Source: a virus (lineage: Duplodnaviria > Caudoviricetes). Taken from it: 64,000 nt of DNA. The stretch lies in the IMG/VR virus record IMGVR_UViG_3300025735_000007, positions 42,296 through 106,295 of that record; one strand, 5' to 3'. Made by a program: the position numbers and the translations under genes. Below, one piece after another: positions 26,083-29,030 of the stretch; the first letter of the stretch is position 1, and each line of letters begins with the position of its first letter. The notes beneath the pieces were generated by a model. It saw nothing but the letters and a program-made list of their open reading frames with translations, was not told the origin of the DNA and ran no database searches.

Positions 26083-26790
26083 TCAATTGAATGGGCCAGC
26101 GCCGCCAAAATCCAAACCGTCTAGCGGGTCGATTAGGTGTGCGCCGTCAGTGTCGGAGCGATTGACCATTTGAGATACCGGGAACCATTCAAACGCGTCC
26201 GGCGGCACGCATGCGTTAAGTGCGAGCATGCGCGCCATCTCTGGTGTCGACTGAGCATCGAGCCATGTGCGCGCATCAGCCGCCGTGAAGACAACTGGCC
26301 GACGATCGTGGATCACCGCCAGCTCGCCTTCAGCTGCGGTCGTCACGACCACAAAGCCGTCACCGTCGCGCGGCTCGGCACCGGGCTTGGTGCTGCACAA
26401 GCCCGCCATGTAGATCGGCTCACGGCTTTTCAGGCGAATGAAATACGGATGCTTCTTTCGGTCCTTCCCGACGATCCACTCGAACCAGCCATCGGCGGGG
26501 ACGACGACACGACCACTCTTCCATAGCCACTTCCAGGCCGATCCATCTGCCTTTTCGACGGTGGCATTGATCATCGGCTTCAGACCCTTGTCGGCGGCCC
26601 ACTTCGGGCGGTATCCCCAATGCGCGCGGGCCGTAGTTCCGTTAGGGAAGATGATCAGTTGCCCTTTGCCCGGCGCTACGTTCCAGCTCGGGTGATGCGA
26701 CGGAGGTTCGGGTTCCGCTCTACCGGTATCGGTCATCAGCGGAACGACGTAATCGAGTCCTGCACGAGCCAGAACGTATCGTCCGCACAT
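26083..26790 (-). CDS. SOS response-associated peptidase (SRAP/YedK, abasic-site protection)
   Basis: MCGRY N-terminus, WNVAP, PADGWFEW, IHDRRPV. Confidence 0.93.
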   Translation of the reverse strand: MCGRYVLARAGLDYVVPLMTDTGRAEPEPPSHHPSWNVAPGKGQLIIFPNGTTARAHWGYRPKWAADKGLKPMINATVEKADGSAWKWLWKSGRVVVPADGWFEWIVGKDRKKHPYFIRLKSREPIYMAGLCSTKPGAEPRDGDGFVVVTTAAEGELAVIHDRRPVVFTAADARTWLDAQSTPEMARMLALNACVPPDAFEWFPVSQMVNRSDTDGAHLIDPLDGLDFGGAGPFN

Positions 26791-26868
26791 GCGCTTCTCC
26801 TGACGTGCTGAAACAGGCGTGGCTAGGGTGTTATTTCTGGCACGCCTGCCTGCGTCAGATCCATGCCT

Positions 26869-27227
26869 GGTAACACCAAACCGCGGCTTCGGGTAACAAA
26901 ATTGGTGACAGCCGAGAAATGCTAGGGGGCTGGCCGCGCTTGTCGGGCACTTGCGCCGTCACGGAATAGGAATGATAGACTGCTTCGACAAGAGGTCCGA
27001 GAGGACCTCCTTGTCGAAACGCCATGGAATCGGCGGTGCCTCGACAGCCGCGCGAACATGCGCGATGAACGCCTTGCGCGCTATCTCGCGACCGCCGAGC
27101 GACGCCAGATGCGACGTGTTCTGCTGGCAGTCTATCAACGCTAGCGTAAAAAAATCCTTATAAATCAATCGCTTGGTTTGACTGTTTTGGCAAAAAAGTC
27201 GCCCAAGCGGTAACAAAAACGGTAACA
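26869..27227. other. Putative attP: arm repeats + IHF site + host-homologous core
   Basis: GGT(A/G)ACA at 26869, 26892, 26904, 27209, 27221; IHF consensus AATCAATCGCTTG 27163-27175; adjacent integrase. Confidence 0.75.
26959..27138 (-). pseudogene. aat: 3' fragment of leucyl/phenylalanyl-tRNA-protein transferase gene carried in attP
   Basis: Translates to [24 protein letters not shown]...PPIPWRFDK, the conserved Aat C-terminus; no 5' part present. Confidence 0.8.
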
Positions 27228-27250
27228 CGAAAATCAGCACGGGATCAATT

Positions 27251-28516
27251 GTGTCAAAGCTCAACAACCGCATCATCGAACGAGCCAAACCAAGCCCACG
27301 TGACAAGTATATTGCGGACGGCGATGGTTTGTTTCTTCGCATAACGCCGAACGGAACAAAAACTTTCTGCTTTCGCTACACATGGGGCAAGAAGCGGCGG
27401 CTTCTGTCGCTCGGGCCATTTCCGATTCTTTCGATTGCAGAAGCACGGGAGAGGGCGAACGAAGCTCGGCGGCAAATTTTCCTCGGGGTTGACCCTATCG
27501 AGCACGCTCAGGCCAAACCGGCCCAGCCGGACTGCCCGACTGTCAGAACTCTGATCGCTAACTGGGCCGATCGGTATGCCAAGACCAACTACAAGCGTCT
27601 CGACACGCAACTCCGGATGATTGAGAAAGACATCCTGCCAGTTATCGGCTCGGTGCCGGTCAAGGACATTACAAAAAAGCATGTCTCCCAAGTCATCAAC
27701 AGGGTGGTGGACCGCGGCGCGAAGGTGAAAGCGAACAGAGTGCTTTCTCTCATGAAGACAATCTTCGGTTATGCGGTCGAGCACGGAGAGATCGACGAAT
27801 CGCCCGTCACGATGACGAGGAAAGGGGCGGGTGGGAGGGAAAGGCCGAAGAACCGCGTGCTCGGCGCAGATGAGATCAAGGTCTTCTGGACGGCGATCGA
27901 GACCCATTCAGGGTTTATGAGCTGGCGCACAAAACGCATCCTGCACCTAATCCTCTTAACCGCTCAGCGTCCGGGTGAGGTTGCAGGAATGATGTGGGAC
28001 CATGTGGACCTCAAAAAAGGGATCTGGCAGCTACCGGCAGAACTGGTCAAATCCGAGCGTAACCATGTCGTTCATTTGTCAGAGCAAGCTGTCAAGATTC
28101 TTGAGTTCGCGCGAGGGCGATCGGCCGGGGGCCGTTATGTTTTTCCTAGCGCAAGGGAGAAGGGGAAACCAACAGGGACGCAGACGCTGTCCTTGGCGCT
28201 GCTCCGGATGTTTAAAAATGGGGAGTTCAATGCCATGAAGCCCTTCACACCTCACGACCTGCGACGGACGGCGGCTACGCGAATGGCTGACATATCGGTG
28301 CACGCCCACATTGTGGAGAAAATCCTGAATCACAAAATGAAAGGCGTTATGGCCGTCTACAACTATGCGGAGTATCTGGACGAGCGCCAGCAGGCCCTTA
28401 TCGCCTGGGGTAACTGCGTTGCTCGCTACGCTGATGTCTGGTCGACGGAGGCCGCAAACGGCAACGGCCCATGTGTTCCTGAAGATGTGTCGGCCGAGTC
28501 AAGCGGTGGACGGTAG
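27251..28516 (+). CDS. int: Tyrosine integrase (P4/IntA-like, N-terminal arm-binding domain)
   Basis: DGDGLFLRI arm domain; TAQRPGE, HDLRR, LNH, AVY catalytic R-H-R-H-Y intact. Confidence 0.95.
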
Positions 28517-28523
28517 ACAAAGA

Positions 28524-28549
28524 AAAGCCCTGTTCAGCGACAGGGCTTT
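28524..28549. terminator. Bidirectional terminator between int and repressor
   Basis: AAAGCCCTGT-tcagcg-ACAGGGCTTT between convergent genes. Confidence 0.8.
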
Positions 28550-28574
28550 AAAGGGGAGGTGCTTTTCTGCAACA

Positions 28575-29030
28575 TCACTCCGCAGTCTTGGAGCGATTCA
28601 GCTTTGTCGGATGCTTGTGATGTTCCTTCAAAGCGGCGCGGATGGCTGCGTTCAACTTCGGGTCGCTAAAGTCAATGCCGGCCCCGTCGGTTTCTTCATC
28701 GACGATTTTCTGGAATGCCTGCTGTGTCGGGGTGATATACCGGTCGCCGACTACCTTCTCAATGACCTCCCATGCTTCAGGCATGTATTCGGTCATCACG
28801 ATGCGCAGTAGGTTAGCTGGGTCGAGGCCAAGAGACAGCGCCATCGCATTAACCTTGTTGATAGGCAGCTTCGACTTGCCCTGCTTGAACATCGTAATGA
28901 TGTTCGGGTTCTCATAACCTAGTTCCTGCGTGATCTGGCGCTGAGTCTTCCCGCTCATGTCGATCGCGCGCTCTAAATACTCGGCGACCGTCAACTTCGT
29001 TGCTCGTGGCTTTGCCTGTTTCGCGGCCAT
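28575..29030 (-). CDS. XRE-family HTH transcriptional regulator (candidate repressor)
   Basis: SGKTQRQITQELGY..PNIITMFKQGKSKLP HTH; GGAGG RBS; divergent from main operon. Confidence 0.85.
   Translation of the reverse strand: MAAKQAKPRATKLTVAEYLERAIDMSGKTQRQITQELGYENPNIITMFKQGKSKLPINKVNAMALSLGLDPANLLRIVMTEYMPEAWEVIEKVVGDRYITPTQQAFQKIVDEETDGAGIDFSDPKLNAAIRAALKEHHKHPTKLNRSKTAE

Follow-up and report, generated by a model that had tools for sequence, protein, structure and literature searches.

A spare 3′ end of host aat in the probable attachment site of a temperate Paraburkholderia phage

An aat 3′ end lies between predicted arm-type sites next to a tyrosine integrase

The stretch of DNA that we analyzed, referred to here as the window, is 64,000 bp long and corresponds to bases 42,296–106,295 of a 106,295-bp IMG/VR virus record. 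The locus of interest has a DNA ligase and a SRAP gene on its left and an HTH regulator and a CobT-like gene on its right (PHROG annotation), in line with an earlier reading made from the letters of the window alone (the sequence-only reading), which had placed phage genes on both sides. Its features are as follows:

26869–26910, plus strand: far-side (P′) arm-type sites, with GGTRACA at 26869, 26892 and 26904, the last two 12 bp apart
26926–26983, plus strand: inverted copy of host aat, 58 bp, made up of the 47 bp just upstream of the junction and the first 11 bp of the shared segment
26959–27138, minus strand: replacement aat 3′ end, 59 codons plus a stop codon (26961–26959), with no start codon and no gene body
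26984–27018, no strand assigned: near-perfect 35-bp palindrome in the coding sequence of the tail, read from the sequence; a hairpin in RNA folds
27010–27137, minus strand: segment common to phage and host aat, i.e., the direct repeat of the lysogen, with the crossover somewhere inside
27127–27137, minus strand: TGATAGACTGC, the edge of host-aat identity on the integrase side, codons I-D-C of the IDCQ motif
27163–27175, plus strand: IHF consensus WATCAANNNNTTR, between the edge of aat identity (27137) and the integrase-side arm pair
27209–27227, plus strand: integrase-side (P) arm-type pair, GGTRACA copies with 12-bp spacing
27251–28516, plus strand: tyrosine integrase, 421 residues, with a P4-type N-terminal arm-binding domain (Pfam, PHROG 1, catalytic residues)
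28575–29030, minus strand: HTH regulator, with weak HTH_19/HTH_37 Pfam matches, assigned by PHROG to transcriptional regulators and divergent from the genes that follow

The minus-strand frame at 27138–26959 had been taken for the C terminus of Aat without the body of its gene, and the frame itself, the Pfam match, and protein and DNA comparisons all agree on this. Residues 1–19 of the tail match positions 152–170/171 of the Pfam family Leu_Phe_trans, with a score (E = 0.0099) below the curated cut-off because the overlap is only 19 residues. When one genome per species was scanned, 196 relatives came up, the best of them being Paraburkholderia Aat C termini, with 81%–86% protein identity. Identity to a host gene had been expected to start near 27136; the segment 27010–27137 is 96% identical to aat of P. 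aspalathi at the DNA level. There was no aat gene body, and no second member of the family, elsewhere in the whole 106-kb record. The codons of the IDCQ motif fall within the shared segment; in an alignment with E. coli Aat structures, this corresponds to the stretch that we take to hold the catalytic residues D186 and Q188 of the E. coli enzyme. The 11-mer TGATAGACTGC at its edge occurs twice in the window (0.02 matches expected), the second copy being inverted at 26973–26983. The palindrome at 26984–27018 is not followed by a run of T residues and is thus not a canonical terminator; a simple scan of 26700–27400 found neither a canonical terminator nor a sigma-70-like promoter.

The integrase is an intact P4-type tyrosine recombinase, as the sequence-only reading had proposed. 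All three domains are present, i.e., PF13356 (Arm-DNA-bind_3; E = 3.7e-23), PF22022 (Phage_int_M; E = 9.2e-16), and PF00589 (Phage_integrase; E = 8.8e-25), and the catalytic residues R240, K267, H335, R338, H361 and Y370 are invariant in an alignment of the protein with seven homologues. Its catalysis of recombination between attP and attB is predicted from the products read at the junctions described below. The next gene, encoding the HTH regulator, is likely to be part of a lysogeny module.

The GGT(A/G)ACA repeats said to bracket the aat tail are present as paired copies on both sides, with the additional single copy at 26869. Pairs of GGTRACA with 12-bp spacing occur in the 64 kb only at 26892–26910 and 27209–27227 (0.00 expected), and 5 of the 11 single sites in the window fall within 360 bp at the att site. 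The perfect IHF consensus reported at 27163–27175 is also there, being one of two matches in the window (0.41 expected). Predicted arm sites therefore flank the core on both sides, together with a predicted site for the host factor IHF.

Both junctions of the prophage and the empty site can be read from existing sequences

The aat-side junction was found by following the cluster of the phage SRAP protein. It is present in a 398,950-bp contig of the isolate genome Paraburkholderia sp. SIMBA_050 (L112) and in a metagenome contig (L113). In L112, a host NUDIX gene is followed by an aat gene of 250 codons, directly by SRAP, and then by the phage ligase, DnaG-like, DnaB and Hfq-like genes; the gene order in L113 is the same. 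Identity with the window (97.5% for L112, 97.1% for L113) begins exactly at 27137 and extends to 26001, and in both cases the 250-residue Aat ends in exactly the tail encoded in the window. This is the hybrid gene that had been predicted for an element inserting near the IDCQQ codons and restoring aat with a tail of its own.

The reciprocal junction is present in L089 (ENA sample ERZ27250357), a contig of the sample that also yielded L113. Its identity to the window over 27010–29000 is 98.5%, and this stretch carries the integrase, the HTH gene, a gene of 79 codons, and CobT. To the left of 27010 it has the native aat tail, ending RFDK-TALLDVLARAA, followed by the aat–ate spacer and the start of ate. 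Between the window segment 27010–27137 and the native copy that adjoins the L089 integrase, 127 of 128 bases agree, and the attL and attR copies of the repeat from one sample show one difference in 127 bases. These comparisons bound the crossover only to 27043–27137, the limits being the edge of identity at 27137/27138 and the first difference between attL and attR, near 27043.

When the host flanks of L113 and L089 were joined, they gave an uninterrupted NUDIX–aat–ate locus of 1,297 bp, encoding a normal Aat of 245 residues. This reconstructed empty site aligns from end to end with ten lysogen-free Paraburkholderia genomes, with 90%–92% identity. Prophages split at aat, which the sequence-only reading had looked forward to, thus do exist, and attL, attR and attB have all been obtained as sequences, from L112, L113, L089 and the joined flanks. 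Comparison of the two forms of the gene indicates that the 11 native residues following RFDK give way to 16 specified by the phage, lengthening the protein from 245 to 250. The hybrid gene keeps the codons of the catalytic motif and the 40 codons that follow; only the last 16 codons are altered. In empty sites, aat and ate are about 120 bp apart, while in lysogens they are separated by the 106-kb prophage.

No full-length Aat bearing the tail of the window came up in a word-based protein search, although such proteins are present in L112 and L113; the blank result therefore reflects an incomplete search rather than a rare protein. The sequence-only reading had suggested that integration might alter N-end-rule proteolysis; our default reading is that the spare aat end preserves Aat function rather than alters it, the hybrid being presumed active.

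A model for integration at the catalytic-motif codons

We consider it very probable that the element is a temperate Paraburkholderia phage of about 106 kb, and that this locus is its functional attP. We propose the following mechanism. The P4-type integrase would bind the arm-site pairs that flank the core, with IHF probably bending the DNA of the integrase-side arm at 27163–27175. The integrase would then recombine the phage segment that runs leftwards from TGATAGACTGC at 27137 with its identical counterpart in host aat. As a result, the body of the host gene would read into the 59 phage-borne codons, and the gene would stay open. The native aat tail would be left as a fragment beside the integrase, and the prophage would part aat from ate. 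The roles of the integrase, arm sites and IHF, the exact point of crossover, the activity of the hybrid Aat, and any effect on ate are what we infer from this arrangement. Where a catalytic motif is conserved, so is the DNA target that encodes it, and attB sites are commonly chosen on this principle.

The record as an unintegrated form of the phage

The sequence-only reading had described the locus as an intact attP in an unintegrated element. This is likely to be correct, the unintegrated state resting on one metagenome contig that crosses the 127-bp repeat. There is a small chance that the att site is real but that the join is an artefact of assembly, i.e., that DNA from a sample containing only lysogens was closed into a false circle via the repeat. 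The record, which is classed as linear, consists of a JGI metagenome contig (L091) with no terminal repeat, and a 127-bp repeat with one mismatch is shorter than, or near, typical k-mer and read lengths. An assembly graph built from lysogens only would, however, normally break at the repeat, as happened with L089, L113, L090 and L092, whereas the 106-kb record ends in phage DNA on either side, lacking any host flank, with a CheckV completeness of 96%. The artefact reading also draws on short-k Logan contigs (L090 among them), which stop at 27108 and 26958, exactly 30 nt inside the shared sequence. Their breakpoints fit the boundaries that we mapped, and are no proof of free phage DNA.

An inverted copy of host aat within the phage-borne tail

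One feature of the locus, missed in the sequence-only reading, is not accounted for by the model of attP integration. The 58 bp at 26926–26983 match host aat with 91%–95% identity in the plus/plus orientation, whereas the tail matches it plus/minus. Read on the minus strand, the phage-borne tail takes its final eight codons and its stop codon from the inverted copy; in the coding direction of the tail, this copy comes after the 35-bp palindrome. It is present in the window, L112 and L113, variants that have diverged by only about 3%. The join of the palindrome to the inverted copy, sought as an exact pattern, was absent from IMG/VR and gave only chance matches of 19–22 nt in JGI metagenomes.

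We lean toward the view that the inverted copy is a neutral scar, left when a strand-switch (quasi-palindrome) error occurred during replication in a past lysogen and was followed by normal excision. A strand-switch error seems to us the simplest origin because the source sequence adjoins the tail only in a lysogen, because DNA was replaced rather than added (the distance from the edge of identity to the stop codon is 178 bp, compared with 175 bp in the related element L106, which has no inverted copy), and because there is GCAG/CTGC microhomology at the join. A scar would also fit with the finding that L106 works without the copy, and that in L113 the copy is decayed at its far end. What fits less well is that the copy has been kept in all three sequenced variants (which are, though, only about 3% diverged), that the hybrid gene takes its stop codon from it, and that a 15-nt piece of the same inverted sequence lies near the far arm sites of the distant element L036 (there is none in L106). 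If the copy did arise by strand switching, we would take the 11-mer for the stretch in which two host-derived copies overlap, and not for a mapped integrase core.

It is improbable that the inverted copy is functional, acting through an RNA structure specific to lysogeny that would close the last ~190 nt of the hybrid aat transcript, including the catalytic-motif codons. In the free phage alone there is only the 11-bp inverted match. In L112, on the other hand, the inverted copy and host aat form a 58-nt inverted repeat that is 95% complementary, with 143 nt between the arms. The predicted fold of this region has an energy of −182 kcal/mol, compared with −105 kcal/mol for shuffled sequences (z = −15.5), and contains a stem of ~57 bp that encloses the end of the gene. 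Were such a stem to form, it could lower or stabilize aat expression, be cut by RNase III, or stop read-through from the host into the prophage and, together with the separation of aat and ate, it would mean that lysogeny retunes the N-degron pathway. Other possible functions of the inverted copy are as an insulator or as a second integrase site.

We regard as very unlikely the idea that the inverted copies of TGATAGACTGC at 26973–26983 and 27127–27137 are both substrates for the integrase, creating a 143-bp invertible switch or allowing insertion in either orientation: although finding this 11-mer twice, inverted, is well above expectation, and each copy lies 60–70 bp from an arm cluster, the junction contigs L089, L112 and L113 all use the copy at 27137, the flipped state was not found in IMG/VR, and an overlap of two host-derived copies need not be the overlap region of the integrase. 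Insertion at an inverted pseudo-site followed by aberrant excision, which we also considered as the origin of the copy, was set aside, since the lysogen junctions are normal with the copy already present.

On the plus strand, antisense to the tail, there is an open frame of 70 codons at 26951–27163. This frame is probably not a gene; its first residues are aat-like because its start falls within the inverted copy.

Related integrases are found at the same position in aat

Five to six further elements, with integrases 58%–88% identical to that of the window, lie at the same position in aat, each with a displaced aat tail followed by ate and pyrD. They are listed here by the identity of their integrase:

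L088, 88%: island in the chromosome of Paraburkholderia sp. BL17N1, carrying resolvase, ParB/RepB and Abi genes
L093 and L083, 73% (one integrase shared by both): large phage in synteny with the window, from a metagenome contig and an IMG/VR record
L096, 72%: large phage from a MAG, again in synteny with the window
L095, 69%: large phage on a metagenome contig, likewise in synteny with the window
L036, 59%: islet of 5.4 kb in Burkholderia sp. IMCC1007
L104/L106, 58%: one metagenome contig of 28 kb; element of ~17 kb, with both junctions

The boundary of aat identity falls at the same base in L036, L083, L088, L093, L095, L096 and L104. The P-side pair of arm motifs beside the start of the integrase is kept in all relatives read, and paired motifs like those of the P′ arm follow the element-borne aat tail in L106 and L036 as well as in the lysogens L112 and L113. 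By our reading, five out of six relatives keep the IHF site at this position, L036 with a single mismatch; the site in L088 is mismatched and was counted as not kept. In L089, L095 and L096 the integrase is followed by a gene resembling the HTH regulator in size and strand, so that this arrangement is syntenic in related prophages.

Since the closest chromosomal relative of the integrase (88%) is in an island and not in a phage of the present type, the module of integrase and att site moves between very different elements. L104/L106 has an exact repeat of 86 bp and a hybrid Aat (P0217), the last ~30 residues of which are specified by the element itself. Its tail resembles that of the window (KEALSDVL compared with KEVLSDLL), and from this likeness between the sequences the spare aat ends appear to be inherited with the elements rather than captured anew each time.

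An IMG/VR scan for the sequence at the aat edge matched only the record L083, and searches of phage and plasmid collections returned no close relative of the att region. The relatives of SRAP in IMG/VR, at only 35% identity, gave no useful information. The sequence-only reading had called the genome phage-plasmid-like; we found no support for this, the plasmid collection containing nothing similar to the phage beyond short patches, and the relatives with readable context all being chromosomal insertions.

Among 399 genomes sampled from the family, at least one had a homologue of the integrase at E ≤ 1e-90, a count that is a floor, with few candidates scored per genome. That homologue, which is 54% identical, is not at aat. 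Taken with the elements listed above, this suggests that the limit of the aat-specific clade is at an identity of between 54% and 58%. The 54%-identical integrase (L109; contig 2, 1013383–1017558) has the paired arm motif as well, and adjoins a host gene other than aat.

Comparison with known integration systems

Phage 21 and the e14 element integrate into icd of E. coli. As in those cases, the tyrosine integrase described here targets the 3′ part of a protein-coding gene, and a spare 3′ end keeps the gene open with an altered C terminus, while the native end becomes a fragment at the other junction. Unlike phage 21 and e14, the target is aat, in the Burkholderiaceae, the element is a 106-kb phage with its own DnaE, DnaB and ligase, and the spare end carries inverted host sequence from the other side of the junction. 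The integrase has the same domain architecture as the P4-type Arm-DNA-bind_3 (DUF4102) integrases that act at tRNA genes, and shares with those systems directly repeated arm sites on both sides, an IHF site, and the presence of the 3′ end of the target gene in attP. It differs from them in that the target is protein coding and that the segment shared with the host is 86–412 bp, and not the 3′ half of a tRNA gene.

As outlined in PMC4482086, the dusA-specific integrases of prophages and genomic islands form one clade that uses one conserved protein-coding target in many genomes. The aat integrases resemble them in being a clade tied to a single protein-coding target that serves both phages and small islands. 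The dusA elements are described there as inserting at the 5′ end of their target, whereas insertion into aat is in its 3′ part, at the catalytic-motif codons, and the aat clade was rare in the genomes sampled.

In the literature that we searched, there was no description of aat as an attachment site, although large island databases may list it. The target thus appears to be new, while the mechanism, in which an element enters the 3′ end of a protein-coding gene and brings a replacement for it, is a familiar one. The gene for the bacterial N-degron L/F-transferase appears to join the protein-coding genes that serve as attachment sites for phages and islands. With members 58%–98% identical and a fixed target at conserved catalytic-motif codons, the integrase clade offers a ready attP/attB pair for genetics in Paraburkholderia and Burkholderia. 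The lysogens, with their changed Aat C terminus and a 106-kb insertion between aat and ate, also provide a natural test of prophage influence on N-degron proteolysis.

Composition of the surrounding genes, and other insertions at aat

The genes between 24344 and 29030 of the window encode a membrane-like protein of 160 residues, a product of 172 residues, SRAP, the integrase and the HTH protein. Their GC3 is 0.61–0.70, compared with at least 0.8 for most genes of the phage, and GC content is also lower over ~24–29.5 kb, falling to about 0.50–0.57 between 26800 and 29800. A nested island at ~24–29.5 kb, suggested by these low values, was considered and dropped. The block belongs to the phage, because the integrase, HTH and CobT genes are syntenic in related prophages, and SRAP adjoins aat in the lysogens.

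The island in L088 (11480–21230) contains genes for a DUF4365 protein, a serine resolvase, two ParB/RepB proteins, an Abi_C protein, and ankyrin proteins. The islet in L036 (1–6400) appears to have a direct repeat of ~412 bp that extends from the aat tail across the spacer into ate, of which it takes in the first ~190 bp, and it leaves a truncated second start of ate behind. By eye, its cargo includes putative genes for a PAAR-type protein, a possible toxin, and an immunity protein.

Inserts of ~700–800 bp between aat and ate were also seen in B. pyrrocinia MSMB1755 (L027, 6190–6930) and Burkholderia sp. Ac-20353 (L030, 6190–7010). All that they retain is the opening codons of an integrase, together with an arm pair, an IHF-like site, and a second aat tail that is truncated and degenerate, and from this content we read them as decayed remnants of elements once integrated at aat. 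In the working aat genes of these two strains the target codons differ synonymously, being ATCGATTGC instead of ATAGACTGC.
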